64,000 bases of DNA from Verrucomicrobiaceae bacterium (GTDB lineage: Bacteria; Verrucomicrobiota; Verrucomicrobiia; Verrucomicrobiales; Akkermansiaceae), in assembly GCA_027486655.1 (NCBI GenBank), contig JAIXOR010000067.1, forward strand, positions 21,280 through 85,279, given 5' to 3'. The position numbers and the translations under genes were made by a program. The notes under the pieces were generated by a model. The model ran no database searches and was not told the origin of the DNA. It was given only the letters and a program-made list of their open reading frames with translations. Below, in pieces: positions 16,402-55,012 of the stretch. Within the stretch, counting starts at the first letter, position 1; each line of letters begins with the position of its first letter.

Positions 16402-16416
16402 ATGCAAATAATGCAC
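16402..16416. promoter_or_regulatory. GTGCAA-N3-TTGCAC palindrome site (2 mismatches)
   Basis: atgcaa ata atgcac between the divergent PEP-CTERM and Hpt genes. Confidence 0.65.
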
Positions 16417-16580
16417 CTTCGACTCCCCAAAAATGGCTGAATGACTTCCACAGCGGCTCCGGATTCCCCCTTGACAGGCATGACGGGATGTTCGACCAGA
16501 TTCCCACGATCGATTCTCTGGAATCACCCGCCTGACACATCCTTCTTGGGTGTTCGGGCGGACCGCGAGTCACCGCAATC

Positions 16581-17000
16581 ATGAGCCAACCCCCCCCCCT
16601 ATTTCACTGCTTGAAAGAGAAACTCATTCCGGACGACCTGCCCGTGCTTGACCCGGGTGTGCTCACCAGCATCAACAAACAGCTGGGGGAGTCCCGCAAC
16701 GTCGCAGGCAAACTGATCGAGACCTTTTCCTCCACCTCGGGCCGCCACCTTGAACAAATCGAGGCCGCCCTCCGAAACCGCGAGGATCACAACGCCGCCC
16801 GCGCCGCCCACGCCCTCAAGGGAGGCTCGCTCACCATCGGCCTCACCAGACTTGCCCATGCCTGTGCAAAAATCGAGAAACGGCTGTCGTCGGACGACTC
16901 GTCAGCAACCGTCGACGACCACGAGCGCGCCATCCTCTCGAAGGAAATCCGCAAAGAGCACGACACGGCTCTCACCGCCCTTTCGCGCTGGCCCCATTGA
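16581..17000 (+). CDS. Stand-alone Hpt phosphotransfer protein
   Basis: PVLD..L N-terminus and AAHALKGGSLTIG with the conserved His. Confidence 0.88.
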   Translation: MSQPPPLFHCLKEKLIPDDLPVLDPGVLTSINKQLGESRNVAGKLIETFSSTSGRHLEQIEAALRNREDHNAARAAHALKGGSLTIGLTRLAHACAKIEKRLSSDDSSATVDDHERAILSKEIRKEHDTALTALSRWPH

Positions 17001-17027
17001 GGCAGGGCGGGAGCAGCATCAGGCGCT

Positions 17028-19127
17028 CTAGCTTCCATAGCTGCCGTAGGATCCGTATCCACTCCGGCCGCCAGGCCTCCTGGAGCCGTATTGATAGTAT
17101 CCATAGGCATGGTTCGCCGCGATCAGACTGCGGCTCTCGCGGTATCCGTTCAAAATCAGTCCGGAGATCCGGCCACGGCCACCACCGAGTATCGAGATGG
17201 ACCGGTCGGCCGCATCCTTCGGAACGTAGGCAGCCCGGACGACAAGGCACACATTGTCCGCAAACCGGGCGATGATGCGGGCATCGGGAACGGCAAGAAG
17301 CGGCGAAGTGTCCATCACGATCACGTCATACGCGGCCCTCGCTTCATCCAGCATGGCCACAAGACGCTCTTCATTGAGCAATTCGCCCGGGTGGGGAAGT
17401 CTCAATCCACCGACAAGCACGTCCAGGTTCGGAGCCACACCTCCAGGAACGATCGCCTCCTGGAGCGAGCACAGTCCCGCAAGACAACCGCTCGTTCCGA
17501 TACTCTCGGAATCCAGTTGGATCCCGAAATACTTGTGCACGGAAGGCTTGCGCAGGTCGAAGTCCATCAGCAGCACCCGTTTCCCCTGGGCAGCGGCCGC
17601 GAGGGCGAAATTGACGGCCATGAAGGACTTGCCCTCGCCTGAAATCGAAGAACTGAACATGGTCACCTTACGACCTCCCTCCGGCCCCAGCAGAGTCACC
17701 GATGCCCTCAACACCCGGATCATTTCGGCATAAGTCGTCATGTAAAGCGCCTTCCGGAAAAGCACGTTCTCCGCCCAATTCCTCTCGTGCTCGGGAGCCT
17801 CTTCCCTGCCAGCCTCCACGAGATCCGCCAGATCCCCGAACGGCACCTGCGATACCGCACCGATCACGGGCAGGCCGCTGCGTTCTTCGAGTTCCATAAC
17901 GGTGTGAAACTTGTTCTCCGCCCGCACCGAAAGGTAGGCGATCAATATTCCAAAAGCCGCGCCCCCGACCAAGCCTGCAGCCATCACCTTCACACGCACC
18001 GGGCTCACCGGCGCACCGGGCAGCAGCGCTCGGCTGCTCACCTCGATTTCGGAGTCCGAAGACGCCTGATTCACATCCGTCTCCCGCATTTTCGTGAGGA
18101 TGGCGTTGAAGACCAATTCCTGGCTTTCGATCTCGCTCTTGAGCACCGCAGTCCGCGCCAGAAGCACCCTCCTTGCGATGTCGAGCCGCTCGTCGAGCGT
18201 TTGCGAGTCCACGGACAGTTCAATGCCGGATTGCTTCCAATAGGCCTGGTCCGCACCGGACTTCACGGCGGCATCGAAGTCGGCCAGAAACCTCGCCTTC
18301 AACGTCGCGATCTGGCCATTGCAGGTGACCATCTTCGGATGCTTCGGCAGATAGCGCCTCGCAAGATCCGCCAGTTCCTTCTCCTTCACTTCAAGCTGGG
18401 AATGGCTTTCCATGGCTCTGATGTAAGAGGTGAAGGCATTCTGCGAGCCCTGCAGTGAAAACCGGGCCTTCTCGGATTCGTTGGTGAGAACCTCGATCGA
18501 ATTGGTCCGCCCGGAACTCTTCTGCTCACCCATCTCCGCGATGTATTCCATGGCGACCGCATCCGCCAGAACCGCAGCCGCCTCCGGTGAACTGTGGGTG
18601 ATCGAAACATCCACCAGACGCGTGCCTCGTCTCACCGAAACACTCATCCATGAGGCGATCTTTGCCGCAAGCACGGGAGTTGGCGGCAAAACGCCCCCCA
18701 CCGCGAGCTCATCCTCAGGCGCGCCGGACATCCACCCGGGAAGCCAGCGGACCGGCTTCGGGTTCAAGCCCTCGAGGCCCGTCACGTCGGTTCTGGCAGC
18801 CACTCGCTCCAGCAGGCTCTGCCTCTTCAACCTTTCCGCCACGGTATTCATGGCCTCGACCGAACGCATGTCGATTTCGTCGTTCTGGTCCTTGGTGAGA
18901 ACCGAAGTGGTCGCCTGCTTCACCAGCAAGGTCGCGTTTGCGGAATACTCGGGACGGGCTTTGGAGAGATAGTATGCCCCTGCGGAAACACCCAGAATAA
19001 TTCCGAAGCCGATCCAATACCAGCGCGCCAACAGGTCCTTCATCAGGCGCCCGGTCGCTTTGTCGGAAGCAGCGCCGGCCCGGGCTTCATCCTCGCCATT
19101 CCCTGGCACTTCCCTCGTTTCGTTCAT
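17028..19127 (-). CDS. wzc: Polysaccharide co-polymerase / BY-kinase (Wzc-like)
   Basis: Two TMs flanking a coiled periplasmic region, Walker A SISGEGKS, DFDLRKP, Tyr-rich C-terminal cluster. Confidence 0.9.
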   Translation of the reverse strand: MNETREVPGNGEDEARAGAASDKATGRLMKDLLARWYWIGFGIILGVSAGAYYLSKARPEYSANATLLVKQATTSVLTKDQNDEIDMRSVEAMNTVAERLKRQSLLERVAARTDVTGLEGLNPKPVRWLPGWMSGAPEDELAVGGVLPPTPVLAAKIASWMSVSVRRGTRLVDVSITHSSPEAAAVLADAVAMEYIAEMGEQKSSGRTNSIEVLTNESEKARFSLQGSQNAFTSYIRAMESHSQLEVKEKELADLARRYLPKHPKMVTCNGQIATLKARFLADFDAAVKSGADQAYWKQSGIELSVDSQTLDERLDIARRVLLARTAVLKSEIESQELVFNAILTKMRETDVNQASSDSEIEVSSRALLPGAPVSPVRVKVMAAGLVGGAAFGILIAYLSVRAENKFHTVMELEERSGLPVIGAVSQVPFGDLADLVEAGREEAPEHERNWAENVLFRKALYMTTYAEMIRVLRASVTLLGPEGGRKVTMFSSSISGEGKSFMAVNFALAAAAQGKRVLLMDFDLRKPSVHKYFGIQLDSESIGTSGCLAGLCSLQEAIVPGGVAPNLDVLVGGLRLPHPGELLNEERLVAMLDEARAAYDVIVMDTSPLLAVPDARIIARFADNVCLVVRAAYVPKDAADRSISILGGGRGRISGLILNGYRESRSLIAANHAYGYYQYGSRRPGGRSGYGSYGSYGS

Positions 19128-19199
19128 GATTTCCTTTGGATTGCTTGCGTTTGGCGGTCACTCACGGCCACCCATGCCGGCATTCGGAGCGGCGGAGTT

Positions 19200-20039
19200 T
19201 TAAAATAGTCGTTCAGGAACAGTGATGATGTCATCCGGCTCCAGACGGAACGGAGTGTCACCCCGCGAGGACATTTCCTTCACATCCAGAACGGTGACGC
19301 GCCCCCCACGGTTGACGCTCACCTTCTTCGGATTGGCGAGCTCCGTGAACCCGCCTGCCCTTGCGATGGCGGAAACCAGATCCAATCTTCCATCCACCGG
19401 AAAGGCCACCGGACCCCGATTGCGAACCTCGCCCACAAATGTCACCGTCTTGTTGACGTAGCGGCTCTCGCCCACGATCACCCGGTCACCGGGCCCGAGC
19501 TGGATCCGAACTCCCTTCTCGATCCCGGTAAGCGCGAACTCCGCCGTGGAACCATCCGCACGAACCAGCGAGATTCGCGAGATATCCGCCGTGGCCGACA
19601 CCCCACCCGCGGTCGCAATCGCCGCGGAGATGTCAAGTTTGCCGGACTGAGGAATCTGGATCTGCCCCGGATTGGCTACCGCACCCAATACCGATACAAA
19701 CAGCAATCCATACTCATCCACGGTGAGCGTCACTTTCGGATCCACCAGATAATCGGCCGCATAAAGACTGCGAATGCGCTCGGTCGCGGAACGGATCGGC
19801 AAGCCCCCGATCTTGACCGCACCGATGAGCGGGAAAACCCCTTCGCCGGTCTGAAGGATCCTGGTCTGCACGGAAAGCTCCGGTTCCTCGAATACGGAGA
19901 TTTTCACCACGTCGTTCGCCTTCAGGACATAAGACGAGTCCGGCTCACCCTCAGGCTCGGCAGCCAAAACACGCACGCCTAACAGCAGGAAGCCAATGAG
20001 GAGGAATCTTGCCAAGGGAAATGACGAGTAACGTTGCAT
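19200..20039 (-). CDS. Polysaccharide export protein (Wza/OPX-like, SLBB domains)
   Basis: YVLKANDVVKISVFEEPELS Poly_export motif, two SLBB repeats. Confidence 0.88.
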   Translation of the reverse strand: MQRYSSFPLARFLLIGFLLLGVRVLAAEPEGEPDSSYVLKANDVVKISVFEEPELSVQTRILQTGEGVFPLIGAVKIGGLPIRSATERIRSLYAADYLVDPKVTLTVDEYGLLFVSVLGAVANPGQIQIPQSGKLDISAAIATAGGVSATADISRISLVRADGSTAEFALTGIEKGVRIQLGPGDRVIVGESRYVNKTVTFVGEVRNRGPVAFPVDGRLDLVSAIARAGGFTELANPKKVSVNRGGRVTVLDVKEMSSRGDTPFRLEPDDIITVPERLF

Positions 20040-20045
20040 CGGCGG

Positions 20046-21260
20046 TCAGAAATTGAGGGACAAGGAAAAACCTGCCTGCATCGCGTCCCAATCCCGCGTG
20101 AGATCGTCGCTGCCACTATGCTGCTGGCGTAGAAAGACCAGACCACTCGCCCGGTCAGCCCAAATCGGAAAGGACAGGCTGAGGTCGGCGGTCAGGTAGT
20201 CGACGTCGGAACGCTCGACACCCCCGTCCTCGACAGGATAAGCGGAATGCTCATAGCCAAGGCCGAAAGACGCGCTCATCCGGCGGATCTCCCGGTTGAC
20301 GCCAAGACGGATTCCGGTCGTTTCGCGAAAGCCTCCCGCCAGCGAGCCATCCGCCTCAGCGGCTCGAACGAACGAGGCATTGAAGCTCCAAAGACGATCC
20401 AGTTCATAAACGGCGGCGATGCGCGAGGAAACAAAGTGGTCTCCCCCTCCCGCATCATAGCGGGTGAAATCAAGACCCACGGAGCCATCGATCGACACCT
20501 TCTTGGAAAGCTGGTAGGCGGCGCTCAGAATGGGACCGATGGAGTTCCTGCTCTGCTGAAGGTCCCCGGTGCTGTTCCGGATTGCAATGCCCGGGCCGAA
20601 CCGGAGCAAGGATGAGTAGCGCCACAGCGCAGAGAGCGAGGCCACGTGGTTCTCGGTCTCGCCGAATCCACCATCGGGCACGCTCCAGGACGAGTCCCAC
20701 GACGCCCTTACCGAGGTCTTCGGACTGAGATCATAGGTAGCCTCGAGACCGGCACCATACGATTTCTGGGAAACGGACGCCGCATAATACCGGTTCACAC
20801 CATCCGAATACGAATGCCTAAACCGGGAAACGAGATCCCATCGCCCGCCATCATAGGCAGCCGAGGCCCCCAGCGCGTAACTGCCGCCACTGTAAGAGTC
20901 GCCATCGAGATACTCGTTGTAGCCGGCCTTCGCGTTGAGTTCGGTCCGCCACTTGGAATCATCCCTGCGCCAACCCAGACTCGGCGAGAACGTGAAGGCA
21001 AGACTACCCTCTTCAGGACTCTCGTCGGTCCCTGGGGCCTGACCTGGATTGCTGTCGTAAAACACGCTTGTCAGCGCACCCAACTTCAGCCCGGAAAGCA
21101 ATTCCTCCCCGGGCACACTCGGGTAGGAGGAAAGCAGATCCCCGCACAATGAATTGTCCGCAAGGGGAGCGGAAGGCCGGACCACGGGGTCTTCAGAAGC
21201 GACTGAGAACGTCACCCCAAAACCGAATCCCACCGCCAGACTGAGCACCAATCGCTGCAC
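20046..21260 (-). CDS. Outer-membrane beta-barrel protein of the EPS export locus
   Basis: Alternating amphipathic strands, terminal Phe (LSLNF). Start uncertain: GTG 21260 chosen because the TTG at 21320 lies inside a regulatory palindrome. Confidence 0.75.
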   Translation of the reverse strand: MQRLVLSLAVGFGFGVTFSVASEDPVVRPSAPLADNSLCGDLLSSYPSVPGEELLSGLKLGALTSVFYDSNPGQAPGTDESPEEGSLAFTFSPSLGWRRDDSKWRTELNAKAGYNEYLDGDSYSGGSYALGASAAYDGGRWDLVSRFRHSYSDGVNRYYAASVSQKSYGAGLEATYDLSPKTSVRASWDSSWSVPDGGFGETENHVASLSALWRYSSLLRFGPGIAIRNSTGDLQQSRNSIGPILSAAYQLSKKVSIDGSVGLDFTRYDAGGGDHFVSSRIAAVYELDRLWSFNASFVRAAEADGSLAGGFRETTGIRLGVNREIRRMSASFGLGYEHSAYPVEDGGVERSDVDYLTADLSLSFPIWADRASGLVFLRQQHSGSDDLTRDWDAMQAGFSLSLNF

Positions 21261-21308: not shown

Positions 21309-21335
21309 TCGATAGTGCAATTATTGCACTATCGA
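21309..21335. promoter_or_regulatory. Perfect 27-bp palindrome containing GTGCAA-N3-TTGCAC
   Basis: TCGATAGTGCAA-TTA-TTGCACTATCGA, 12-bp arms, between the divergent export operon and marR. Confidence 0.8.
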
Positions 21336-21412: not shown

Positions 21413-21427
21413 GTGCAAACTTTGCAC
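21413..21427. promoter_or_regulatory. GTGCAA-N3-TTGCAC site (perfect)
   Basis: gtgcaa act ttgcac, with c/g extension. Confidence 0.8.
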
Positions 21428-21553: not shown

Positions 21554-22000
21554 ATGAGCACCATCACCAGAAGATCCCCCCAGAAAACCAAGGGACACTC
21601 CACGGAAGACGGGATCGCCGTCAGGCACGACGGCATCTCCTCACTACTCAGCAAGATGGACTTCATCTTCCAGACACTCCGCTCGCGGAGAATCTCGATG
21701 AGCTCCCTCCACGCAGTGACCAATCTCTACGTGAACCGCAAGAACAACCTCAGCCTGAGCGAGCTGGCCGCCAACCTCGGAATCACCACCGCCGCCGTCA
21801 CCAGCGTTGCGGACTCGATGGAAAAGCTCGGCCTCGCCAAGCGAACCGTGAACACCACGGACCGCAGACTCACCCACATCAACCTCACCCACCGCGGCAT
21901 CGCCTTCGCGGAGTGGCTTCATGACACCATCGGCCGGGATTCATCACCCTCCGGCCCTGCGGAAATGACTGTCGACCGCGAGCCGCAGCTCAGCTGCTGA
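21554..22000 (+). CDS. MarR family transcriptional regulator
   Basis: LSLSELAANLGITTAAVTSVADSMEKLGLAKR..DRR winged helix. Confidence 0.85.
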   Translation: MSTITRRSPQKTKGHSTEDGIAVRHDGISSLLSKMDFIFQTLRSRRISMSSLHAVTNLYVNRKNNLSLSELAANLGITTAAVTSVADSMEKLGLAKRTVNTTDRRLTHINLTHRGIAFAEWLHDTIGRDSSPSGPAEMTVDREPQLSC

Positions 22001-22156: not shown

Positions 22157-22203
22157 TCCGGGTGCGGAGGGCGGATTTTCACGCGAGAGGCATCCGCATC
22201 TCC

Positions 22204-23241
22204 ATGATCATCCACCAAGCGACATTTTATCTTGATACGCATCCAGGGGCATTTCTCCAGGCCTACGCGCTGCAGCGCGCCCTCAAGGAGGCGGGGCACC
22301 AGCCCGCCCTTGTTCCACACCACTCTGCCGAAGCGGCCCCACCCGGATGGAAGCGCCGGATCGGAGGCTTGCTCACCGGAGAGCGAGTGATCGAAGCCTC
22401 TTATGCCGCCTTCCGTGCCCGCCATCTAATCGAGGTTCAGACCGGCTCCCGATCAGAAGCCCCGGAGGCCATGGTCTGCGGCAGTGACCAGATTTGGAAT
22501 CCCCACCTGATTCCTGAGAACCAGGTGGATCCCTTCTTCCTTCTGCAATCCGCACCGCCCGGGACCCGCAGGATATCATACGCCGCAAGCATGGGTGGAT
22601 GGAAACCGGAATCCTCCGAGGAAGCATCATTTCGCGACGCCCTGCAAGGATTCAGCGCCATTTCGGTGCGGGAGCCTTCCGCCAAATCCTTGATCGAGAG
22701 ACTTCTCAACCGCGAAGTCCATCTGGTGGCCGATCCCACACTGCTACATTCTTCCTACGATGAATTCTGCCAGACACCCGTCGAAAATGGCGGCCATGTC
22801 CTCCTCTACGGACTCCAGTGGTCGGACCTCCTCCGCCAGACCGTGACCGAAGTCGCACGCAGGCATCGCATGCCGGTTACCGCCATGGGAGGCCCACTCC
22901 TTCCTTGGAAAAGGATCGGACGGAGAGTCGATCCCGCCACTCCCGGAGAATGGATCGGAAGAATCCGCCGCGCGGGAATCGTGGTGACCAACTCCTATCA
23001 CGGCCTCATCTTCAGCATCCTGGCTGGCAAGAAGGTCTACGTCCCGCTGCTCACCGCATCGCTCGTCAGGCGCAACGAACGCATGGAACACCTTTGCGCC
23101 ATGCTCGGCATTACGAAACAGGTCATCGTTTCCGATGCCACACGGCTTCCTCATGACGAGATCGACTGGGAAGACGTCCACAGACGCATCGACGGGACGA
23201 AACGCACATCGCTCGATTTCCTTAAACAGGCTCTTTCCTGA
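22204..23241 (+). CDS. Polysaccharide pyruvyl transferase family protein
   Basis: GAFLQAYAL, VCGSDQIWNP, SYAASMG, ISVRE, ADPTLL, TNSYHG motifs. Confidence 0.88.
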   Translation: MIIHQATFYLDTHPGAFLQAYALQRALKEAGHQPALVPHHSAEAAPPGWKRRIGGLLTGERVIEASYAAFRARHLIEVQTGSRSEAPEAMVCGSDQIWNPHLIPENQVDPFFLLQSAPPGTRRISYAASMGGWKPESSEEASFRDALQGFSAISVREPSAKSLIERLLNREVHLVADPTLLHSSYDEFCQTPVENGGHVLLYGLQWSDLLRQTVTEVARRHRMPVTAMGGPLLPWKRIGRRVDPATPGEWIGRIRRAGIVVTNSYHGLIFSILAGKKVYVPLLTASLVRRNERMEHLCAMLGITKQVIVSDATRLPHDEIDWEDVHRRIDGTKRTSLDFLKQALS

Positions 23242-24736: not shown

Positions 24737-24951
24737 TTCATTAATTTTATTATGTTAATTAACAGCTCACACCAAGTTTGTTTTTAAAAATAATCATTAA
24801 GAATGCACTTCTGAATCACTTTACAGCATTAGTATAGATACTAAGTTTTAATAATAAATACACAATTCGAATGCCGTTCGGTGTATTCACCTAATTCAAC
24901 TGGTTGTATTAGCTTTTGAATATGTGATAATAGACCAAAAGCTTTAACAAT

Positions 24952-27746: not shown

Positions 27747-27753
27747 CGGCACC

Positions 27754-33154: not shown

Positions 33155-33163
33155 TAGAAACGA

Positions 33164-41552: not shown

Positions 41553-41564
41553 AGTCCTACACCC

Positions 41565-45878: not shown

Positions 45879-48409
45879 CCCGCAACGACGTCCATCGCGA
45901 GCTCAAGGGGCGCACCGACTGGCTGCGCTTCTTCAGCGTCGTCAGGAACTGGCACCTTCTCGCGCTTTTCACCCTCTTCGTCGGCTCCGCCATCTGGCTG
46001 TCCGTGCGCATTATGCGCCTCGAACTCCAGGCCGCAACCAACCGCCTCGTCAGCCACTCGGCCGGAGCCTCCCGCAATCTTGAGACCCAGTTCGATTCCC
46101 TGCGCGACGACTTCCGCGTGCTGGTCTCAACCGGTGCCTTCGAAGCCAGTGTCGGCGAACCCGGACGCAACAATCGCGACCTCGCCAGCGTCAAACGCTT
46201 CTTCGCACGCTATCAGGAAATGATTTCCAGCGTCGAAGTCCTCCTCGTCGACGGTGAAACCATCCTCCTTGAAATCGCTCCGGGCAACTACCTGCGCACG
46301 TCCAGACATGCCAAGTCCACCCACCCCATCATTCCCTCCGCCCCCTCGAAAGTGACCCATGCCGACGAACACCTCATCATCGAGGAACTCGTCCCGGCCG
46401 CGGAGTCCACCGTCATCCGCAGGGTCTGCCTGCACATCAATCACAACCGGTTCTTCGGCGAACAACTCGCCAGTTACCTCATGGGCCAGTCGGACCTCTG
46501 GATCTGGTCGATCGAAGAGGCGGGAAAACCCACCCTCATCCGCAATCCGCTCAAGCTGGGGATCGATTCATTCAACGTCGCTCCCGATGCCCTTCACCGC
46601 ATCCACCAAACCCTCGGCCAGGGCTTGGAAGGCGTGGAGGAACACTCCATCCTGGTTCCCGGGGAACGCTCTGTTGTCAGCGCCTACACACCACTGCACC
46701 TGGGCGGAGAACGCATGGGCCTGGTGTTCTCCACGGACAGCGAGGTCCACCTAGGCAGCCTCCACCGCCTTTCCAAGTTCCTCGGCCTCATTTTCCTCGG
46801 GTCCTTGGTTCTGTTAGGATCGTGGTTCGCGATTTCCTACACGCGCATCCGCGAATCCGAAAGGGAACAGGCGGCTGCAAGGCTCCGTGCCGAGGCGGCG
46901 GACCGCGCCAAAAGCGAGTTCGTCGCCGCAATGAGCCACGAAATCCGCACCCCTCTCAACGGCGTTCTCGGCTATGCGGACCTCCTCATGGCTTCCAAGC
47001 TCACTCCCGGCCAGCGGGATCATGTGGAGGTGATCCGCCACAGCGGAGACCACCTTCTGAGCATCCTCAACGACATCCTCGATTTCTCGAAGATCTCCGC
47101 CGGAGACATGAACCTGCGCTGCCTTCCATTCTCCCCGCTCGAATGCACGGACGACGTCATCGACATGATGTCCACCGCCGCGGACGAACAAGGTCTCGAA
47201 CTGAACCTTGAGGCCCGTGGAGAAATCCCCGCACAAGTCATGGGAGATCCGGGGCGTCTCAGGCAGGTGCTCTACAATCTGGTGGGCAACGGACTCAAGT
47301 TCACCCACGACGGGTCCGTCTCGGTCACCATCGAGGCCTTTGACGAAGGCGACCGCTGGCGGCTCGCCTTCGTCGTCAGCGACACCGGCATCGGCATCCC
47401 CCCGGGAAAGCGCGCCCGGTTGTTCGCCCCTTTCAGCCAGCTCGACGCATCCAATACCCGTGAATACGAGGGCACCGGACTTGGCCTCGCGATCTGCAGC
47501 CGCCTGGTCGAAAAAATGGGGGGAGGCATCGACTTCGAATCGGAGCCGGGCACAGGCAGTGATTTCCACTTCTGGATCATGGCCGGCAAGGTCGATGCGG
47601 CGTCCGACGTCGAACCTCCACCTTTGCATGGCAAGACCGTCATGATCATCGACCCCTCCGAACGCTGCCGGGATTCCCTGGCAGCAAGAATCCGCCGCAT
47701 GGGTGCACAGGTGATCACCGCGGAGGACGAATCCGCGGCAATCCGCCTTTCCGAAGGCAGCGACGGAGTGGACCTCGTGATGATGCACTGGAGCGGTGAA
47801 CCCGCTGCCGGCAAGGCCCTGCGCAGCCACCTCATGAAGGGCCGCGCCCATCCGCCCTCGATGATCGCCCTCACCGGAAAAGGCGTGGATCTGGCACCAC
47901 CCGATCCCGCGTTCAGGGAACGCATGGCCAAACCCGTCCGTCTCGCCAGTCTCGCAAGGCGCCTGATCCACCTGATGGAGAACCATCGATCCGATGCCCC
48001 AACCCCAGCCTCCGCCAACCTCCGCGTGCTGATCGCCGAGGACAATCCCGTGAACAGCAGCCTCATGGTCGCCCTCATGGAACAACGCGGAGCCTCGACC
48101 ACACTCGCGGAAAACGGCAACGAGGCCCTCGCCGCGCTCGAACGGGAAGAGTTCGATGTGGTGTTCATGGATGTGGAAATGCCCGGCCTTGACGGTATCG
48201 AGGTCACCCGGAGATACCGTCAGCTTGAGAGCTCATCCGGCTCACCACGGGTGACGATCGTAGGGCTATCCGCTCACGCCTTTCATGAGGACCGCGACCT
48301 CGCCCTGAACGCAGGCATGGACGACTACCTGACCAAGCCCGTGGTATTCACCGATCTCGATCGTGTGCTTGCGGAGTGCGCCGCCGGGAAAAGCCGTCAG
48401 CAGTCATGA
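45875..48409 (+). CDS. Membrane hybrid histidine kinase (TM-periplasmic-TM, HisKA, HATPase, pseudo-REC, REC)
   Basis: SHEIRTPLNG, NLVGNGLKFT, DTGIGI, GTGLGL; first REC has MMHW instead of xxDx, second has FMDVEMP. Confidence 0.93.
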   Translation: MTRNDVHRELKGRTDWLRFFSVVRNWHLLALFTLFVGSAIWLSVRIMRLELQAATNRLVSHSAGASRNLETQFDSLRDDFRVLVSTGAFEASVGEPGRNNRDLASVKRFFARYQEMISSVEVLLVDGETILLEIAPGNYLRTSRHAKSTHPIIPSAPSKVTHADEHLIIEELVPAAESTVIRRVCLHINHNRFFGEQLASYLMGQSDLWIWSIEEAGKPTLIRNPLKLGIDSFNVAPDALHRIHQTLGQGLEGVEEHSILVPGERSVVSAYTPLHLGGERMGLVFSTDSEVHLGSLHRLSKFLGLIFLGSLVLLGSWFAISYTRIRESEREQAAARLRAEAADRAKSEFVAAMSHEIRTPLNGVLGYADLLMASKLTPGQRDHVEVIRHSGDHLLSILNDILDFSKISAGDMNLRCLPFSPLECTDDVIDMMSTAADEQGLELNLEARGEIPAQVMGDPGRLRQVLYNLVGNGLKFTHDGSVSVTIEAFDEGDRWRLAFVVSDTGIGIPPGKRARLFAPFSQLDASNTREYEGTGLGLAICSRLVEKMGGGIDFESEPGTGSDFHFWIMAGKVDAASDVEPPPLHGKTVMIIDPSERCRDSLAARIRRMGAQVITAEDESAAIRLSEGSDGVDLVMMHWSGEPAAGKALRSHLMKGRAHPPSMIALTGKGVDLAPPDPAFRERMAKPVRLASLARRLIHLMENHRSDAPTPASANLRVLIAEDNPVNSSLMVALMEQRGASTTLAENGNEALAALEREEFDVVFMDVEMPGLDGIEVTRRYRQLESSSGSPRVTIVGLSAHAFHEDRDLALNAGMDDYLTKPVVFTDLDRVLAECAAGKSRQQS

Positions 48410-48673
48410 GCCACGTCCTGCCGATGAGGCGATGCCTCGACGGCGGCGACGGATCAGTCCAAGCATCCCGAAAACACCGATGAACGCTGCCGCCGACTCG
48501 GCGGAAAGCAGGTTCATGTCCGCACTCAGGCGGGCCAATGGAAGCGCGGACACCACCCGCGACGCATCCTTCAGGATCGCACCCGGCGGCGGAAGGGACG
48601 CAGCCGGATCGGAGGCCGGAGCATATGCCCAGCCGCCCAGGGCAAGCAACAGAGTGACACGGATCAATCTCAT
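48404..48673 (-). CDS. Small exported protein with a PEP-CTERM-like TM/Arg tail but no PEP motif
   Basis: Signal peptide, then SAESAAAFIGVFGMLGLIRRRRR; palindrome site 71 nt upstream. Confidence 0.6.
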   Translation of the reverse strand: MRLIRVTLLLALGGWAYAPASDPAASLPPPGAILKDASRVVSALPLARLSADMNLLSAESAAAFIGVFGMLGLIRRRRRGIASSAGRGS

Positions 48674-48743: not shown

Positions 48744-48758
48744 GTGCAAATAATGCAC
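48744..48758. promoter_or_regulatory. GTGCAA-N3-TTGCAC site (1 mismatch)
   Basis: gtgcaa ata atgcac, 3 nt past the nos stop codon. Confidence 0.72.
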
Positions 48759-48761: not shown

Positions 48762-49793
48762 TCATTCCTGCCATGGAGCGGGCATTTTCACGAATGCCGG
48801 CCCTTCCACCTCAGAGGCGTAGTATCGATGGAAAACCGGGCAGGCCGATCCTGACATCGGCGGCACCAGCCATGACCAGTCACCGGGAACCTCACGACCC
48901 CGTGCCTCTTCGTGACGAACGTGCTTCATGAACTGCTCCGATGCCGTGTGGTGATCCACCAGCGTCACTCCCGCCTCACGGAAAGAATGGATTACCGCCG
49001 TATTGAGCTCAACGAGCGCACGGTCCTTCCACAACCCATGTGGAGACTTGAAATCCAGACCCATGCGCCGTGCGACTTCCGGCATCAGGTTGTAGCGGCC
49101 GACATCCCCGAGATTGCGGGAGCCGATCTCCGTGCCCATATAAAACCCGCTGAATGGCGCCGCCGTGAACCGTGCGCCATCCACCACCAAGGCCATGTCC
49201 GAGACGGCTGGCAACGCATGCCACTTCAATCCCAAGTCCGCAAACCAGGTGAAATCCGGATGCTTGAGCGGAACCTCAAGCACGGCCTCCTCTGGAATCT
49301 GATAGAGCCGGGGCTCCTGCCCCGGCATCCCGATCACCAGCGGCAGCACGTCAAACCGTCCGGGCACCGGAGGCGGCGTCCACCCCAGCCCGATGACCCG
49401 CCGGGTGAACTCCTCCTGCTCGGGGTCCCCGAGAACCTCGCCCGAGGCCAGCCGGTATCCCGCGTAGCGGATCAGCTGGCGATTCCAAATCCGGATCCCC
49501 CGCCCGGGCTCATCCTCCGCACGGAACACCGTGATCGCCGGACGAATCCGGCCGCCATGGGTGGAATGAACCAGATGATGGACACACGCGTCGAAGACCT
49601 CGTCCGCGGTTGCAGCCGCCCTTGCATCTAACAAATCAAGGCCCTGCCAGAACAATCGGCCGATGCAGCGGGGATGGTTGCGCCAGGCCAGACGCGCCTG
49701 CACCTCAAGTTCCTCCGCAGCCATCCAGGCCGCCGGAGCGACCCCGCCTTCACGGGGACTGCATCCACCGTCCCTGTTCAACTCCGTCGGCAT
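48762..49793 (-). CDS. nos: Nitric oxide synthase oxygenase (bacterial NOS)
   Basis: AWRNHPRCIGRLFW (proximal Cys/Trp), QLIRYAGY, WHALPAVSDM, FSGFYMGTEIGSRN (substrate Glu), VDHHTASEQF, DWSWLVPPMSGS..PVFH. Confidence 0.96.
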   Translation of the reverse strand: MPTELNRDGGCSPREGGVAPAAWMAAEELEVQARLAWRNHPRCIGRLFWQGLDLLDARAAATADEVFDACVHHLVHSTHGGRIRPAITVFRAEDEPGRGIRIWNRQLIRYAGYRLASGEVLGDPEQEEFTRRVIGLGWTPPPVPGRFDVLPLVIGMPGQEPRLYQIPEEAVLEVPLKHPDFTWFADLGLKWHALPAVSDMALVVDGARFTAAPFSGFYMGTEIGSRNLGDVGRYNLMPEVARRMGLDFKSPHGLWKDRALVELNTAVIHSFREAGVTLVDHHTASEQFMKHVRHEEARGREVPGDWSWLVPPMSGSACPVFHRYYASEVEGPAFVKMPAPWQE

Positions 49794-50276
49794 TCACTCC
49801 TCCTCCGGCCTTTCTTCTCTGAGGGATGAGCCATAAGCTGCAAAGGAATCACTCCCGAACGCCCTGCCCGATACCGGGGTGGGGCGCGATGGATGACCAC
49901 CGTCCGCACCCACCTCATGGCTGAGAAACGGCTCGTTCTGGGACCGAGGCAGCCTTCCGAAGGTCCGGATGAATGACGCGAGCCTGCCACGGAGATCCAC
50001 CCAGCGCCCGGTGGGCGTGGAGGCCAGTTCGTGCAGCCAAACCCTCCTCTGCCGGGACTCCTCATCGTCGTGCCGCTTCGAGAGCTTGTGCAGCTCATGC
50101 CGATGCAGCTCACACCAGGCGGCGAGTCTCCTCAATTCGAGATCCGGAGGCATTCCGCTCGAATCAGCCGTCTCAAGAGCCCTCCGGGCAAGCATCATGA
50201 ACACGGAGGAAACATCCGCACGGACGCGAACATCCGGTTCAAGGGGCAGTTCCTGATCCAAGGTATCGGATTCCAT
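49794..50276 (-). CDS. Hypothetical protein (160 aa), in frame with and abutting nos
   Basis: 5 nt downstream of the Hpt-like gene; its TGA directly precedes the nos ATG. Confidence 0.65.
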   Translation of the reverse strand: MESDTLDQELPLEPDVRVRADVSSVFMMLARRALETADSSGMPPDLELRRLAAWCELHRHELHKLSKRHDDEESRQRRVWLHELASTPTGRWVDLRGRLASFIRTFGRLPRSQNEPFLSHEVGADGGHPSRPTPVSGRAFGSDSFAAYGSSLREERPEEE

Positions 50277-50281
50277 AAGTC

Positions 50282-50671
50282 CTATTTTTCGGTTAGTCTA
50301 ACATCGTTCATCACAACCGGGCCGATCTCCAGAGTGGACCAGGCCGCGATGCTCATTCGAACCACCTCGCGCAGCGCTTCCATCCGCGCGTCGCACGGCT
50401 GCGTTCCATCCGACAGACATTCCGCGGCAACCTTCGCCAAGGCGACGAATCCGCAACTCACCGCAGCCCCCTTGAGCTTCACAAGCAGCGGGCGGGCCTC
50501 CGACACGGTCGTGGCGGACATCATCTTGGACTCAAGCACGTAAAGATATCCCGGAAGCCTGCTGGCAAACTCATCGATGATGTCCTTTATCCGGGGATTC
50601 CTCACGATCCCCATCGTATTCATGTGGGCGAGATCCAGGATGGGATAAATCGCACCGACGCTGTCTTTCAT
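50282..50671 (-). CDS. Hpt-like protein lacking the phospho-accepting His
   Basis: PILDLAHM N-terminal motif; LLVKLKGAAVSCG in place of AHxLKG. Confidence 0.7.
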   Translation of the reverse strand: MKDSVGAIYPILDLAHMNTMGIVRNPRIKDIIDEFASRLPGYLYVLESKMMSATTVSEARPLLVKLKGAAVSCGFVALAKVAAECLSDGTQPCDARMEALREVVRMSIAAWSTLEIGPVVMNDVRLTEK

Positions 50672-50726: not shown

Positions 50727-50741
50727 GTGCAAAGGTTGCAG
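50727..50741. promoter_or_regulatory. GTGCAA-N3-TTGCAC site (1 mismatch)
   Basis: gtgcaa agg ttgcag, about 55 nt upstream of the Hpt-like/orf160/nos operon. Confidence 0.68.
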
Positions 50742-50758: not shown

Positions 50759-50798
50759 AAAAAAGGACATGGAGGTGACACCCATCACCTCCATGTCC
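50759..50798 (-). terminator. Intrinsic terminator
   Basis: Perfect 14-bp stem GGACATGGAGGTGA/TCACCTCCATGTCC, 6-nt loop, then T6 on the minus strand. Confidence 0.8.
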
Positions 50799-50957
50799 AG
50801 GATGACTGCAGCCATACCCCATTCGCATGGAGATCAGACCCGATATCGAACAACAATATGAACGTCTTTTCCGCCGCGCATTGGATGTCCCCCGCAGCGT
50901 CAAAGACCCGGATGAGATAACTTCAGGATGAATCACGTTCAACGGAATTCCGCCCGG

Positions 50958-50972
50958 GTGCATCATTTGCAC
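50958..50972. promoter_or_regulatory. GTGCAA-N3-TTGCAC site (1 mismatch)
   Basis: gtgcat cat ttgcac. Confidence 0.7.
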
Positions 50973-50984: not shown

Positions 50985-51344
50985 ATCGGCGAATGCATGC
51001 ATTTCATGCATGATATCCCCCACATTTCATGCACTTCGGCATTTCATCGACTCGCGACATGCGCCAGTTTCCCGCCGTCGGCACTGCGGACTCCGCAAGG
51101 ATCCACCGCATGCCGTCAATTCCATCACCGGAAGTTTTCCACGACCACGTGTCGCGGTTTGCCTGTAAGGGGGTAAATGCCCTCCAAGGGTGTGGGGCGG
51201 GAGGCTCCACACCCTTGGAAGACCCTCCCTCGCATGCGGACCCAAAAGATTTCCGGACAGATCCCGGGGGGGAATGTGTCCGGATTGAGGAGCATGCCCT
51301 CAAACGCCGCAGGAGGACTCGTTCCTCCTGCGGCAAACTTTTTT
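50985..51344 (+). ncRNA. Candidate structured small RNA
   Basis: Stems 51183-51219 (13 bp), 51252-51284 (8 bp), 51306-51334 (12 bp) plus T6; no convincing ORF; boundaries approximate. Confidence 0.35.
51306..51344. terminator. Hairpin terminator, possibly bidirectional
   Basis: 12-bp stem GCCGCAGGAGGA/TCCTCCTGCGGC; AAACTTTTTT follows on +, GTTTG on -; 14 nt past the kinase stop. Confidence 0.7.
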
Positions 51345-51348
51345 AAGG

Positions 51349-53586
51349 TCAAACCGGTGCGATGAACTCTCGGATCTTCACGATCATCTCGCCATGAAAC
51401 AAGGGCTTCGCCATGAAGCCGTTCATGCCGGCCTGCATGCACTCGATCTGGTCGGAACTGCGGGCGTTGGCGGTGAGCGCGATGATCGGGGCCCGTGACG
51501 ACTTTCTTCCCGGTTCCGCCCTGAGCGCACGGGTGACCTCGACGCCATTCATCACCGGCATCCAGCAGTCCATGAAGATCAGATCGTACTCTTTCTCTGT
51601 TGCCATCGCGAGCGCCTCGCCGCCATCCATCGCGAGATCCACGCAGAGTCCCGTGCTTTCGATCATCATCCGTCCGAGCACTCCGGAGGTCTCGTCATCC
51701 TCGGCAAGCAGCACCCGGCCCTTGAACCTCTCTGAGCGGGACTCCGGCACGTCACGGACGTCGAGATTCCGAAGGGCTGTCTCCGCCAGCGGCAGACGCA
51801 CCACGAAGTAGCTCCCCACTCCGGGTCGGCTGAAAGCACGAATCGCACCTCCCATCAAGGCGGTGAGTTCCTTGGTGATCACAAGTCCCAACCCGATTCC
51901 GTGGTCACCCGACTCGCTTTTCCTGACCGCCTGGGCAAAGGGCTGGAACATCCGGTTCTTGAATTCGCGGTTGAAGCCGATGCCGGTATCCGAAACGGAG
52001 AACCTCACGGGTTGGATTCCGGATGCTCCCTTGCGCCCCATCGAGACACGCACGCGGATGGTTCCGTTGCGGGTGAACTTGAGCGCATTTCCCATCAGGT
52101 TTGCCAGAATCTGCCGGAGGCGGACCGGATCTGCTAGGACCAGACGAGGCACCGCGTCATCAACCTTCCAGTCCAGTTCGCTACCCTGATCGCGTGCCTT
52201 TTTCTCCTCCATCCCGGCGAGCTCGCCCAGCATGGCGCGCAGGTCGACCGGCTCTGGCCGCAGGTCCAGCCTTCCGGCCTCAATTCTCGCGATGTCCAGA
52301 CTCTCGCCAATGATCTTGAGCATCCACCGGCCGGCACCTTCGCCAAGAGCAAGCAGATGCCGTCTGCGACCTTCGTCTTCACAGGATCCGAGCATTTGGA
52401 ACGCTGCCATCATGCCGTTGAGAGGCGTGCGGATCTCGTGACTGACGGAGGCAAGGAAGGAGCTTTTTGCGAAGCTCTCCTGTTCGGCTCGCTCCTTGGC
52501 AATGCGGTGCATCCTCTCGGACTCGATGAGGCGGCATTCCAGGATCTTCTGTTTGGTCACGTCGATGTGCGTGCCGATCATGCGGTGAATCCCGTCGTTC
52601 GGCTTGGAAATATTGAAGCCACGCGTGTTGATCCAGAGCCACTCACCATCGCGGTTGAGCATGCGGAGCGTCATCTCGAACTGGGTTCCGGGGCGTTTCG
52701 CGCAGCGGCCCGCCACCCGGAGCGCCTCGTCACGCTCATCGGGATGCAAGCGGCCACTCCACTCCTCCGGCAAATCCCCGACATCATCCTCGGACAGTCC
52801 GAGCTGGCGCTTCCATTGCTCCGAGTAATAGACCCGGCCGGAAGAAAGGTCCCAATCCCACAGGCCGACGTTGCTGGAAGCAAGAGCGGTGACCAGACGT
52901 TCTTCGGACACCCGGATCCGTTCGATCTGACCCGCGATGGTCGCGCGACGGCGGAGGCTTTCGATCAATACGCCCACCTGATTGGCAAAGGTGGTGAAGA
53001 CCGCGGAAACACCGCCGGGAAAACCCTGATAGAAACCGGGTTGATGCCGGGTGTTGCAGGCGAACAACATTGCAACCGGCTGCCCCTGGGAGTCGACGAC
53101 AAGCTCGGCACAGAAGTCATCCTGCAACCCGAGCTCACCGGGCAGCGGTGGCAGCGGCAGGACCGCCGCTCCTGCCCTCGCCCTCGATGCGAAGGCCTCA
53201 AGATTGGTAAGGATCCAATCACGCAGTGCACGCCACTGGGTGTAGCTCACCTCGCCCAGACCGGAGTGCGTGAGACAGTCCTCATTCTGCTCGCATTGCA
53301 GGCACCAGCAAGCCGCCACGCCACACTCCAACAACTCGATGATGGCCTCGCAAACCAGGTCGGGAAAACTGTCGCCGCTGTCCACCTGCACGGCCTGCCG
53401 GATGAAGTGCTGGATCGTATTGAACCTCGCCCGCTCCTGATCGAGCCGATGGCTGAGGTCGAGCACCTCCTGACGGAGGCGTTCGATCTGGGAGACCTGC
53501 CGCCGCAACAGCACGATCTCGGGCTCGGGATCCTGCGCTGACATCAGGCCATCCACAGGAGCTCTTGCTGACAATCCTGAATCCAT
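51349..53586 (-). CDS. Cytoplasmic hybrid histidine kinase (coiled coil, GAF-like, PAS, HisKA, HATPase, REC), NahK-like by context
   Basis: GLWDWDL..WSGRLHPDE PAS; SHEIRTPLNG; NLMGNALKFT; DTGIG; GIGLGL; FMDCWMP. No TM. Start uncertain, set just after the FIST stop. Confidence 0.92.
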   Translation of the reverse strand: MDSGLSARAPVDGLMSAQDPEPEIVLLRRQVSQIERLRQEVLDLSHRLDQERARFNTIQHFIRQAVQVDSGDSFPDLVCEAIIELLECGVAACWCLQCEQNEDCLTHSGLGEVSYTQWRALRDWILTNLEAFASRARAGAAVLPLPPLPGELGLQDDFCAELVVDSQGQPVAMLFACNTRHQPGFYQGFPGGVSAVFTTFANQVGVLIESLRRRATIAGQIERIRVSEERLVTALASSNVGLWDWDLSSGRVYYSEQWKRQLGLSEDDVGDLPEEWSGRLHPDERDEALRVAGRCAKRPGTQFEMTLRMLNRDGEWLWINTRGFNISKPNDGIHRMIGTHIDVTKQKILECRLIESERMHRIAKERAEQESFAKSSFLASVSHEIRTPLNGMMAAFQMLGSCEDEGRRRHLLALGEGAGRWMLKIIGESLDIARIEAGRLDLRPEPVDLRAMLGELAGMEEKKARDQGSELDWKVDDAVPRLVLADPVRLRQILANLMGNALKFTRNGTIRVRVSMGRKGASGIQPVRFSVSDTGIGFNREFKNRMFQPFAQAVRKSESGDHGIGLGLVITKELTALMGGAIRAFSRPGVGSYFVVRLPLAETALRNLDVRDVPESRSERFKGRVLLAEDDETSGVLGRMMIESTGLCVDLAMDGGEALAMATEKEYDLIFMDCWMPVMNGVEVTRALRAEPGRKSSRAPIIALTANARSSDQIECMQAGMNGFMAKPLFHGEMIVKIREFIAPV

Positions 53587-53593
53587 CGAGGTA

Positions 53594-54796
53594 TCACAAG
53601 GAGCCATCACGCCTGTACAGGACGTATAGGGCCGTGGTGTAGTTGTGAAACTCATTCTGCCCGCCAAGCCGGGCAAACTCGCCGAATCCGTACATGCCGA
53701 GCCATGGCGGCGTTTCATCTCCCTCGGTGAAGGGAGCCTGCATTCTCGAAACCAGCTCCTCCTTGAGGATCCGGTTGAACATATGCCGCCCCCGGGCGAG
53801 GCAGTCGGCATGGAACACGGCCACGGGAGTCACCCCACCCGTCTCGCGGACGAGCCGTGCGGTCAGCCGGTCCATGTCCGAAAAGATGCGGTCTTCATCG
53901 CGCACCGTAAGCCATAGGTCGGTGCCTTCTTCGATGGTGGTCGCATAATGCATCGCCCCGGAGTCATCGTGACTGGTTACCACTCTCAGGATGTGGGGGT
54001 TTCCATACTCGGCTGCAAGTGCCTCCGGCAGCCGCTCCGCGAGCGCCCCGATCGGGATCGTCTGACCGCAGTGTGCGTCCTCAGCCAGACCGAGGCGTTC
54101 GGTGAATTCCAACCAGGCCGGCCGGCCGTTCAACTCGATGATCCGGTTGCCTTCGGAACGCGTAACCCGCATCGGATCCCCGACTGCGAGAAAGCCATGG
54201 CTCGCCCCCGTGGCCACGTGAAGGTCGGGATCCGCAAAGCCGACCAACCATGCCGAGTGCTCATAGACGTGCTCTCCGAAAATCTGATAACTCTTCAGCC
54301 CCCTCATGTTATCGGCGGAGGTGGCACCGAACACGGTTACATCGGAACCAAGGGAATCCTCGATCGCGCGGATGCATTCGTCATTGGCGATATCGATGCC
54401 GGAGGCCATGAAATACACCATGTTCACTCCCGGCAGGCGGCGCTTCAACTCGTTCGCAAGCTCGCCGACCTTCTCGCGGCTGTTGTGGCCGAACACGCCA
54501 TCTCCATGAACGGCGGCGAGTTCCTTGCCGGTGACGGCCATGATCGCGACGTCCCTCATGGTTTCGCTCACCCCCTCGCGGCCGATGATGCCGCAGCAGG
54601 AAGCGCCGACGACCAAGGCCCGGGGAGCGAGCTTGGCGGCCTCCGATGCGAGCTCGGTGAAATCATGACCCACGGAGGCGTGAATCATCAGGAGATCGCA
54701 ATCCAAGCCGGGATTTCCTCCGGCGATTTCGACGCACTCGGCAATGGCGCGTCTTGAATTGATGACCCGGGTACTTGCGGAAGCGAAGTGCAGCAT
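53594..54796 (-). CDS. FIST N/C-domain protein (NosP-like)
   Basis: GASCCGII, VFGATSAD, GASHGF..VG..MRVTRSEGNRIIELNGRPA, DCLAR, GMYGFGEF, FHNYT. Start MLHFAS. Confidence 0.9.
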   Translation of the reverse strand: MLHFASASTRVINSRRAIAECVEIAGGNPGLDCDLLMIHASVGHDFTELASEAAKLAPRALVVGASCCGIIGREGVSETMRDVAIMAVTGKELAAVHGDGVFGHNSREKVGELANELKRRLPGVNMVYFMASGIDIANDECIRAIEDSLGSDVTVFGATSADNMRGLKSYQIFGEHVYEHSAWLVGFADPDLHVATGASHGFLAVGDPMRVTRSEGNRIIELNGRPAWLEFTERLGLAEDAHCGQTIPIGALAERLPEALAAEYGNPHILRVVTSHDDSGAMHYATTIEEGTDLWLTVRDEDRIFSDMDRLTARLVRETGGVTPVAVFHADCLARGRHMFNRILKEELVSRMQAPFTEGDETPPWLGMYGFGEFARLGGQNEFHNYTTALYVLYRRDGSL

Positions 54797-54962
54797 GGGA
54801 TGATGGTTTGGGGGGGTGGTTGTTGGTTTGGGGAGGAGATCCTGGTGGTTTGTCAGGTCCCGGTGGATGCCACGAGCATCGGTAAAATGGCGCGGCTGGA
54901 CCAAGGTAAGCATCCCGAAACCGATTCTGCACCCGGTTCAAGACACAAATCGCGTACCAACC

Positions 54963-54977
54963 ATGCAAACTTTGCAC
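54963..54977. promoter_or_regulatory. GTGCAA-N3-TTGCAC site (1 mismatch)
   Basis: atgcaa act ttgcac in the FIST/regulator divergent promoter. Confidence 0.72.
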
Positions 54978-54997
54978 TAACCCATCGCTTCGGATCC

Positions 54998-55012
54998 GTG
55001 AAATATTTGCAC
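54998..55012. promoter_or_regulatory. GTGCAA-N3-TTGCAC site (1 mismatch)
   Basis: gtgaaa tat ttgcac, 35 bp from the previous site. Confidence 0.68.

Follow-up and report, generated by a model that had tools for sequence, protein, structure and literature searches.

We analyzed a 64,000-nucleotide stretch of contig JAIXOR010000067.1 (assembly GCA_027486655.1), referred to below as the window. It derives from a freshwater Verrucomicrobium, and its sequence is present in freshwater metagenome runs. The window carries exopolysaccharide (EPS) export and biosynthesis genes alongside an exosortase/PEP-CTERM system, hybrid histidine kinases, single-domain Hpt phosphotransfer proteins, a bacterial nitric oxide synthase (NOS) and, at 55083, the gene for an NtrC-like response regulator. 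A 15-bp palindrome, RTGCAA-W3-TTGCAY, recurs between these genes. We find this palindrome to be a real regulon signal and predict that it is an evolutionarily conserved regulator-binding site, the operator of a conserved Verrucomicrobial regulon.

A recurrent palindrome in non-coding DNA

The window was searched with the pattern GTGCAANNNTTGCAC, using dinucleotide-preserving shuffles of the same 64 kb as background. Four perfect matches were found (sites 2–5 in Table 1), as compared with none in the shuffles. Allowing up to one mismatch gave nine matches (0.16 expected), and allowing up to two gave ten (1.96 expected), a number that was reached in 0 of 100 shuffles. These ten sites (four perfect, five with one mismatch and one with two) agree exactly, in position and mismatch count, with the copies listed in a first-pass annotation of the window. 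Furthermore, a weight matrix trained solely on sites from other genomes retrieved the same ten when run over the window (15.6–24.6 bits), along with an eleventh, ATGCATTTCATGCAT (site 9, 14.6 bits). The next score in the 64 kb is 9.8 bits, and the distribution is bimodal. Symmetrised counts from 22 sites in the window and related loci yield the consensus R-TGCA-A-WWW-T-TGCA-Y, of which the core TGCA-N5-TGCA is invariant. Outside the 15–17 bp of the motif the information content of these sites is approximately zero, which indicates that the copies are not a mobile or dispersed repeat.

With respect to placement, none of the 11 sites falls in coding DNA, although coding sequence makes up at least 88% of the window according to a crude longest-ORF (open reading frame) gene set. 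Eight are plainly intergenic, and those at 44604 and 50727 overlap only over-extended 5′ ends of longest ORFs. These extensions are judged not to be coding because the orthologues are shorter (367 amino acids (aa) for the Cache-like protein and 101–115 aa for Hpt) and because a terminator with a 15-bp stem lies inside the supposed Hpt N terminus. The earlier statement that no copy falls within a coding sequence is therefore upheld. The sites are located 54–230 nt upstream of start codons, and the stretches outside the cluster (1–16 kb and 56–64 kb) are free of them. A tRNA gene (4198–4269, −) and a gene for a BlaI/Penicillinase_R-type regulator (4459–5226, −) likewise have no motif nearby.

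The genes that neighbor the sites bear out the proposed connection of the nos/kinase cluster with EPS and PEP-CTERM genes and extend it to exosortase genes. Specifically, sites do precede PEP-CTERM genes, the export operon and marR, the FIST gene and the regulator gene, as the first-pass annotation had stated. Its placement of the site at 48744 in front of nos did not hold, as this site lies 3 nt beyond the nos stop codon, between convergent genes. The exosortase operon and a conserved small RNA are predicted to be further regulon members beyond those originally named. Overall, one motif is found to tie together the predicted EPS, exosortase/PEP-CTERM and multi-kinase phosphorelay genes, the nos operon and the small RNA.

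Table 1. Motif sites, candidate binders and predicted targets in the window. L numbers denote related loci, with sites given as locus:position.
Feature	Coordinates	Strand	Description	Remarks
Site 1	16402–16416		ATGCAAATAATGCAC; between PEP-CTERM/EpsH/TPR operon (−) and Hpt1 (+), divergent	21.3 bits; like L165:5270
Site 2	21315–21329		Perfect; 55 nt upstream of likely GTG start (21260) of outer-membrane protein/Wza-like/Wzc-like export operon	
Site 3	21413–21427		Perfect; 127 nt upstream of marR heading EPS biosynthesis operon	Orthologous site L087:3788
Site 4	41337–41351		Perfect; 55 nt upstream of conserved ~48-aa ORF before PEP-CTERM gene	
Site 5	44604–44618		Perfect; between conserved membrane-protein gene (44046–44531, −) and Cache-like/hybrid-kinase operon (~44775, +), divergent; orthologous site L081:7220	
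Site 6	48744–48758		71 nt upstream of small PEP-CTERM-like gene 48404–48673 (−)	
Site 7	50727–50741		~100 nt upstream of likely Hpt2 start; promoter region of Hpt2/160-aa/NOS operon (−)	Strong terminator immediately upstream; orthologous site L082:5650
Site 8	50958–50972		Distal site of tandem pair upstream of small-RNA candidate	Conserved island versus L082:5879
Site 9	50997–51011		ATGCATTTCATGCAT; proximal site of tandem pair	Aligns with a site in 4/4 small-RNA genomes
Site 10	54963–54977		Divergent FIST/PAS-kinase and regulator promoter region	Identical site L082:9882
Site 11	54998–55012		70 nt upstream of regulator start codon	35 bp centre-to-centre from site 10
NtrC-like regulator	55083–56510	+	Response regulator: REC, degenerate AAA+, HTH_8	Candidate binder
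MarR-family regulator	21554–22000	+	Conserved regulon member	Alternative binder
Exosortase operon	12595–16290	−	PEP-CTERM/choice-of-anchor-E protein (15568–16290), exosortase EpsH (13879–15498), TPR protein (12595–13872)	Predicted target
Hpt1	16581–17000	+	Single-domain Hpt phosphotransfer protein	Predicted target
Export operon	17028–21260	−	Outer-membrane protein, Wza-like exporter, Wzc-like tyrosine autokinase	Predicted target
EPS biosynthesis genes	22162–41227	+	Pyruvyl transferase, methyltransferase, flippase, glycosyltransferases, Wzy_C polymerase	Follow marR
PEP-CTERM/MBG_3 genes	41406–44074	+	Secreted Pro-rich ORF (41406–41552), PEP-CTERM protein (41565–42449), MBG_3 protein (42455–44074)	Predicted target
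Cache/kinase genes	44775–48409	+	Cache-like periplasmic protein and hybrid histidine kinase	Predicted target
PEP-CTERM-like gene	48404–48673	−	89-aa secreted protein with PEP-CTERM-like tail (LSAESAAAFIGVFGMLGLIRRRRR); unannotated	Predicted target
Hpt2/NOS operon	48762–50626	−	Hpt2, 160-aa protein of unknown function, bacterial NOS oxygenase	Predicted target
Small-RNA candidate	51125–51345	+	Conserved, structured, ends in intrinsic terminator	Start probably near 51060
FIST/kinase operon	51349–54796	−	FIST-domain protein (~53594–54796), PAS hybrid histidine kinase (51349–~53619)	Predicted target; diverges from regulator gene

Conservation in other Verrucomicrobial genomes

The loci used for comparison encode relatives of the regulator (in the range L081–L099) or of MarR (L165/L166). 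Among the matches listed from a scan of metagenomes with an alignment of the helix-turn-helix (HTH) alone, only L090–L099 are true family members. At least eight Verrucomicrobial genomes carry the motif at orthologous promoters, with regulators that are 45–88% identical to that of the window (L082, 88%; L081, 71%; L084, 56%; L087, 55%; L088, 51%), and the loci with sites at orthologous positions are L081, L082, L084, L087, L088, L090–L093, L097 and L165.

The context of these sites mirrors that in the window. The regulator gene is preceded by sites at L081:45 (perfect), L082:9882 and 9917, L084:9902, L087:9904, L090:8688, and L092:180 and 535, and in all of these loci, as in the window, a site is present no more than ~100 bp upstream of the gene. 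Sites also lie between the Wzy_C and PEP-CTERM genes (L081:10490, L084:3796 and L088:6583), upstream of a PEP-CTERM-like gene (L097:5339, perfect), upstream of marR (L087:3788, as well as a tandem pair at L165:9827 and 9863 in a divergent export/marR region), and upstream of kinase and Hpt operons (L081:7220, and L087:12370 and 12414). At L165:5270, a site heads an operon of a 243-aa gene, EpsH and a TPR gene in the same layout as window site 1. Tandem sites are spaced 35–44 bp apart. In the alignment with L082, the sites stand out as conserved islands within diverged spacer DNA.

A matrix built from the window sites alone gave a site density of 1.76 per 10 kb across the family loci (37 sites, 210 kb), as compared with 0.12 per 10 kb across unrelated loci (22 sites, 1.80 Mb). 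Part of this control (1.3 Mb) consists of loci of unrelated NtrC proteins (≤33% identity) obtained from a full-length family-alignment scan. Within the sequence examined, the motif thus shows a functional bias in its distribution and is conserved at promoters of orthologous genes. Among the strongest control matches, three are themselves ≤150 bp from a more distant HTH homologue. These matches (L106:276, L151:441 and L163:10267; 16.7–21.9 bits) lie downstream of the HTH-coding end, and the HTH is 42–50% identical. The pairing of operator and regulator may extend beyond the present family.

An atypical NtrC-like regulator

The protein encoded at 55083 matches PF00072, PF00158 (Sigma54_activat, at only 90.6 bits), PF25601 (AAA_lid) and PF02954, in the order REC–AAA+–HTH_8. 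It falls below the cut-off of every NCBIfam equivalog, including the PrsR model (TIGR02915), against which its 172.7 bits (cut-off 502.6) are less than its ZraR and NtrC scores. When aligned to Aquifex NtrC4, the regulator has PLSKGEEAHEA in place of GAFTGA, and TIFIENIE is aligned to GTLFLDEI in the Walker B motif, where Asp-Glu is replaced by EN. These features are shared by 26 of 26 aligned relatives, in which GAFTGA is variable or replaced and the Walker B Asp-Glu is missing (consensus IENIE). The relatives keep the acidic pocket, phospho-acceptor Asp and Lys of the receiver, and the phospho-acceptor Asp is conserved in the window protein. Across 26 members the HTH sequence GGNRRRAAQRLKVSLRTIYNMI is nearly invariant, which matches the invariant TGCA core of the motif.

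Judged by its sequence, the regulator is a member of a Verrucomicrobia-specific family with NtrC-like REC and AAA+ domains and a Fis-type HTH. Its closest named relatives are found in Luteolibacter metagenome-assembled genomes, and genes of the family adjoin Wzy_C, PEP-CTERM, MBG_3 and EpsH genes in several genera. By predicted architecture it qualifies as an atypical enhancer-binding protein of the VpsR/NtrX/TyrR type as defined in PMC6158489, and the loss of GAFTGA and Walker B predicts that it acts independently of sigma-54. In the P0130 locus (GCA_041443025.1), genes for a hybrid kinase (with Hpt), MarR and the NtrC-like regulator stand in a row, and rpoN is 7 kb away. Verrucomicrobia with this system therefore possess sigma-54, although the regulator has lost GAFTGA.

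Promoter elements near the sites

Promoter elements were examined around 38 sites from the window and related loci. Relative to shuffles, −24/−12 elements (GG-N10-GC) were not enriched within 200 nt of these sites, and near the window sites none occurred above chance. What was enriched downstream of the site end was TTG[AG], at 13–15 nt (11 of 67 flanks) and at 29–30 nt (9 of 67). Such preferred distances hint that operator and −35-like element stand in a fixed register, and would fit a promoter-proximal activator. A class-II layout, in which the site lies over the −35, was unsupported by the positions of −10-like hexamers. A search for RNA-seq runs containing the window sequence found none, the matching runs being freshwater metagenomes. 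By analogy, the regulator probably works like VpsR on a sigma-70-type promoter.

Candidate readers of the motif

Based on the observations above, the NtrC-like regulator is probably the protein that reads the motif, and we retain it as the best candidate binder, as the first-pass annotation had proposed. Across genera its gene is physically tied to the motif, at 45–55% protein divergence and in varying gene orders. Two sites (sites 10 and 11) lie in its own promoter region, an arrangement that is conserved in five genomes. The predicted targets include the regulator, kinase and Hpt genes, which fits two-component autoregulation.

Several observations weigh against this assignment. A regulator homologue in L086 (53% identical) sits in an unrelated housekeeping context with no site within 10 kb; L095 is also without a site, and L094, L096 and L099 have weak sites only. 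A sigma-70 consensus scan of the flanks did not find a canonical −10 at a fixed distance from the sites, so that the promoter class and the sign of regulation are putative. Finally, MarR is an equally conserved neighbor with sites upstream in three genera (the window, L087 and L165), and in one genome, at the P0130 locus, marR lies directly between the hybrid kinase and regulator genes.

The last of these points leads to the alternative that the MarR protein encoded at 21554 reads the motif as an autoregulated repressor or activator, with the NtrC-like regulator merely one of its targets. The protein is a MarR family member (PF01047, 38.1 bits versus a cut-off of 24.6), its relatives in the PDB include YusO and FabT, and MarR dimers commonly bind short palindromes of about 15 bp. 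In the window, L087 (51%) and L165/L166, its orthologues (51–62% identical) stand at the start of EPS clusters, with the motif a short way upstream. Set against this, no marR gene is present within 10 kb in six loci that have both sites and the regulator (L081, L084, L088, L092, L093 and L097). As MarR could act in trans, this argument is weak. In a word-based search, MarR orthologues number ~10, as compared with >100 close relatives of the regulator. The regulon is also dominated by phosphorelay genes, as is typical of response-regulator autoregulation, and the TGCA half-sites, with G/C at ±7, Y-R steps and an A/T-rich centre, resemble known HTH_8/Fis-type sites. The NtrC operator, TGCACC-N5-GGTGCA, shares this half-site. 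Since MarR and the regulator are both conserved neighbors with sites, co-occurrence cannot separate them, and it offers no ground for ranking MarR lower, as had been done. We consider MarR an unlikely reader of the motif, yet one that stays a genuine candidate.

A third factor encoded elsewhere, such as an NO-responsive regulator of the Rrf2/NsrR type (NO, nitric oxide) or another global regulator, appears more doubtful still. The visible sequence amounts to 64 kb of one genome, L086 has a member of the regulator family without nearby sites, and NsrR-type operators, which have ATGCAT-like half-sites, were considered in view of the NOS gene in the cluster. However, the window encodes no Rrf2 protein, and its one remaining regulator is the BlaI-type protein noted above. 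Moreover, NOS is missing from most of the loci that keep the motif, and the motif tracks the regulator gene across genera and gene orders. It is highly improbable that the palindromes are RNA hairpins, terminators, dispersed repeats or chance occurrences rather than protein operators: a 6-bp stem with a 3-nt loop could form, but the shuffles rule out chance, the flanks carry no information, the sites lie upstream of genes in both orientations and not at 3′ ends, the real terminators of the region look quite different, and sequence variation preserves TGCA and not pairing (the changes in ATGCAAATAATGCAC are non-compensatory).

A proposed model for the phosphorelay

Taking the NtrC-like regulator as the reader of the motif, we propose the following scheme, in which the binder, the sign of regulation and the flow of phosphate are inferred. 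Several hybrid histidine kinases, one paired with the Cache-like protein and one with the FIST protein, would sense inputs and pass phosphate through the single-domain Hpt proteins to the conserved receiver Asp of the regulator. The phosphorylated regulator, as a dimer, would then bind single or tandem sites just upstream of sigma-70-type promoters, and would act as VpsR or NtrX do and not as a remote sigma-54 enhancer protein. Its predicted targets are the exosortase operon, the PEP-CTERM genes, the EPS export operon and the marR-led EPS operon, in addition to the relay's own kinase, Hpt and regulator genes and the small RNA. The operon of Hpt2, the unknown protein and NOS is a predicted target in the window's lineage only.

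Predicted matrix and surface-protein targets

EpsH (539 aa; PF09721, 106.6 bits) and PEP-CTERM substrates are encoded beside EPS genes, which identifies a PEP-CTERM/exosortase system. The marR gene heads ~19 kb of EPS biosynthesis genes and diverges from the export operon. EpsH followed by a TPR protein (12595–15498, −) is a pairing that also occurs in L165, and the TPR protein may correspond to PrsT of Proteobacteria.

The PEP-CTERM protein downstream of site 4 matches PF07589 at 28.6 bits. Long ‘empty’ upstream regions were reported for PEP-CTERM genes by Haft et al. (2006, PMC1569441), and in the window part of this space is filled by an ORF of ~48 aa (41406–41552, +) with a signal peptide and a Pro-rich tail (RRPP..TPPPPVVTP..KPVVSPI). 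This ORF is found in the window, L081, L084 and L088, and in these four genera it follows the operator and precedes the PEP-CTERM gene.

The small protein downstream of site 6 has no match in Pfam or NCBIfam. Its tail, [LV]SAE[SA]AAA...GMLGL[IL]RRRRR in proteins of 89–93 aa, resembles a PEP-CTERM sorting signal in which SAE replaces PEP. The L082 orthologue (3332–3613) has its site at 3684, likewise 71 nt upstream.

The nitric oxide synthase gene as a predicted target

The NOS oxygenase (343 aa; Pfam NO_synthase, 1.3e-135) shares its operon with Hpt2 and the 160-aa protein. The first-pass annotation had described EPS and surface proteins as the output of an NO relay, and this was not supported by our comparison. 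NOS occurs in the window, L081 and L082 alone. It is missing from L084, L087 and L088, all of which retain the motif and the regulator together with the link to EPS and PEP-CTERM genes; some distant loci without NOS also lack FIST. As NOS is limited to the closest relatives and the nos operon is itself a predicted target, it is best described as a lineage-specific output of the regulon. In L081 (1999–3417), the NOS gene is directly downstream of the regulator gene and the small RNA. No reductase partner of the NOS oxygenase is evident.

With respect to NO sensing, the locus resembles the NosP/NahK (NosP/VpsS) systems in that a FIST protein is co-operonic with a hybrid kinase, with Hpt nearby and a link to a biofilm-type output. 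A relay through a NosP-type FIST protein is nonetheless unsupported: Pfam FIST N and C domains are present, but the protein reaches 36.8 bits against the NosP model (NF041558; cut-off 450), and the kinase reaches 115–139 bits against NahK models (cut-offs of 400 and 1500), with the hybrid kinases falling below these cut-offs. A further difference is that only here is a NOS gene a predicted target. An NO-sensing input to the relay is possible.

A conserved small-RNA candidate downstream of tandem sites

The small-RNA candidate downstream of sites 8 and 9 is ~200 nt long (estimates range from ~200 to 280 nt), has four helices and is unannotated. Homologues are found in L082 (6035–6255), L081 (1909–1695) and L087 (~5947–6154), in different neighborhoods. 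The four-sequence alignment contains 14 compensatory pairs, as compared with 5.6 ± 1.6 in shuffled and ≤5 in slid controls. A motif site is present ~95–170 nt upstream of the RNA in four of four genomes, which makes it a likely member of the regulon. In L165, a weak possible homologue (955–1133) adjoins a site at 1233.

A second conserved block (50765–50900, −) lies between sites 8 and 7 and is ~98% identical between the window and L082, where the surroundings are 83% identical. The block ends in a terminator with a 15-bp stem and a T-run (50798–50765), and has a fold z-score of −3.5. Possible roles are those of a small transcript or of a leader/attenuator for the Hpt2–NOS operon. No Rfam family matches the small RNA or this second block.

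Relation to known systems

Our literature search found no paper on this palindrome or regulator family. We regard the operator and the conserved regulon as new, and the general type, an atypical NtrC-family regulator over matrix genes, as known. In VpsR, GAFTGA and Walker B are missing; this protein binds immediately 5′ of the −35 of an EPS promoter, where it activates sigma-70 RNA polymerase (PMC6158489). The window regulator resembles VpsR, NtrX, TyrR, PhhR, HupR and HsfA in its REC–AAA+–HTH_8 architecture, missing GAFTGA and degenerate Walker B. Like VpsR, it has predicted exopolysaccharide or biofilm-matrix targets, and its sites are predicted to lie close to promoters and not at distant enhancers. 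It differs in belonging to another phylum and in having another operator, a canonical phospho-acceptor and a hybrid-kinase/Hpt relay. Its ~80 bits to the VpsR structure 7v2b are below its similarity to canonical NtrC proteins.

The PrsK/PrsR/PrsT system of Proteobacteria uses a 17-nt motif ending in TTTACA, with a −24/−12 sigma-54 promoter ~63 nt later, an element reported from that phylum alone (PMC1569441). Both systems link an NtrC-like regulator and a TPR protein to EpsH and EPS genes, and in both a common cis-element precedes PEP-CTERM genes and is absent from coding regions. In the window, however, the element is TGCA-N5-TGCA with no sigma-54 promoter, and the regulator fails the PrsR model, is without GAFTGA and has no adjoining PrsK-type kinase. 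Genes for 680-aa and 495-aa proteins at 60408–63959 were considered as PrsK/PrsR and ruled out, the 495-aa protein being a GPH-family sugar symporter and the 680-aa protein matching no family. By analogy, the system is the putative Verrucomicrobial functional counterpart of PrsR/sigma-54 control of PEP-CTERM genes.

LuxO/LuxU offers a third comparison, with several hybrid kinases, an Hpt protein and an NtrC-family regulator. LuxO sites mapped by chromatin immunoprecipitation read TTGCA-W3-TGCAA (PMC10328515), likewise TGCA half-sites around an A/T centre, and the small-RNA gene directly downstream of sites recalls Qrr. LuxO, in contrast, is a true sigma-54 activator with N3 spacing where the window motif has N5, and the window RNA, with its four helices, is unrelated to Qrr. 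One could picture the locus as a Verrucomicrobial LuxO/Qrr counterpart, an autocrine, NO-controlled matrix switch in which kinases and FIST act through Hpt and the regulator on the small RNA, the matrix genes and NOS, with NO feeding back; we regard this as speculative and rather improbable.

Finally, the motif matches the published Fis core, as the first-pass annotation had noted, in its 15-bp length, G/C at ±7, Y-R (CA/TG) step at ±3–4 and A/T-rich central 5 bp (PMC4784862). Fis itself recognizes the shape of DNA and is very loose in its sequence preference, whereas TGCA is invariant in the window motif. This points to direct base readout by a specific HTH_8 protein (or MarR) and not by a nucleoid protein.

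Systems of the exosortase/PEP-CTERM type occur widely among environmental bacteria, and how they are regulated is understood in Proteobacteria alone, where PrsK/PrsR and sigma-54 are responsible. The present analysis supplies an operator, a candidate regulator family and a predicted regulon for the Verrucomicrobia, a phylum in which PEP-CTERM proteins are abundant and which has been little studied. The findings suggest that one and the same output, namely matrix polysaccharide and sorted surface proteins, may here be under an NtrC-like regulator that is free of sigma-54, in parallel to VpsR. The placement of a bacterial NOS and an unannotated small RNA under the same predicted control would also provide a handle on the role of NOS in a Gram-negative environmental organism.

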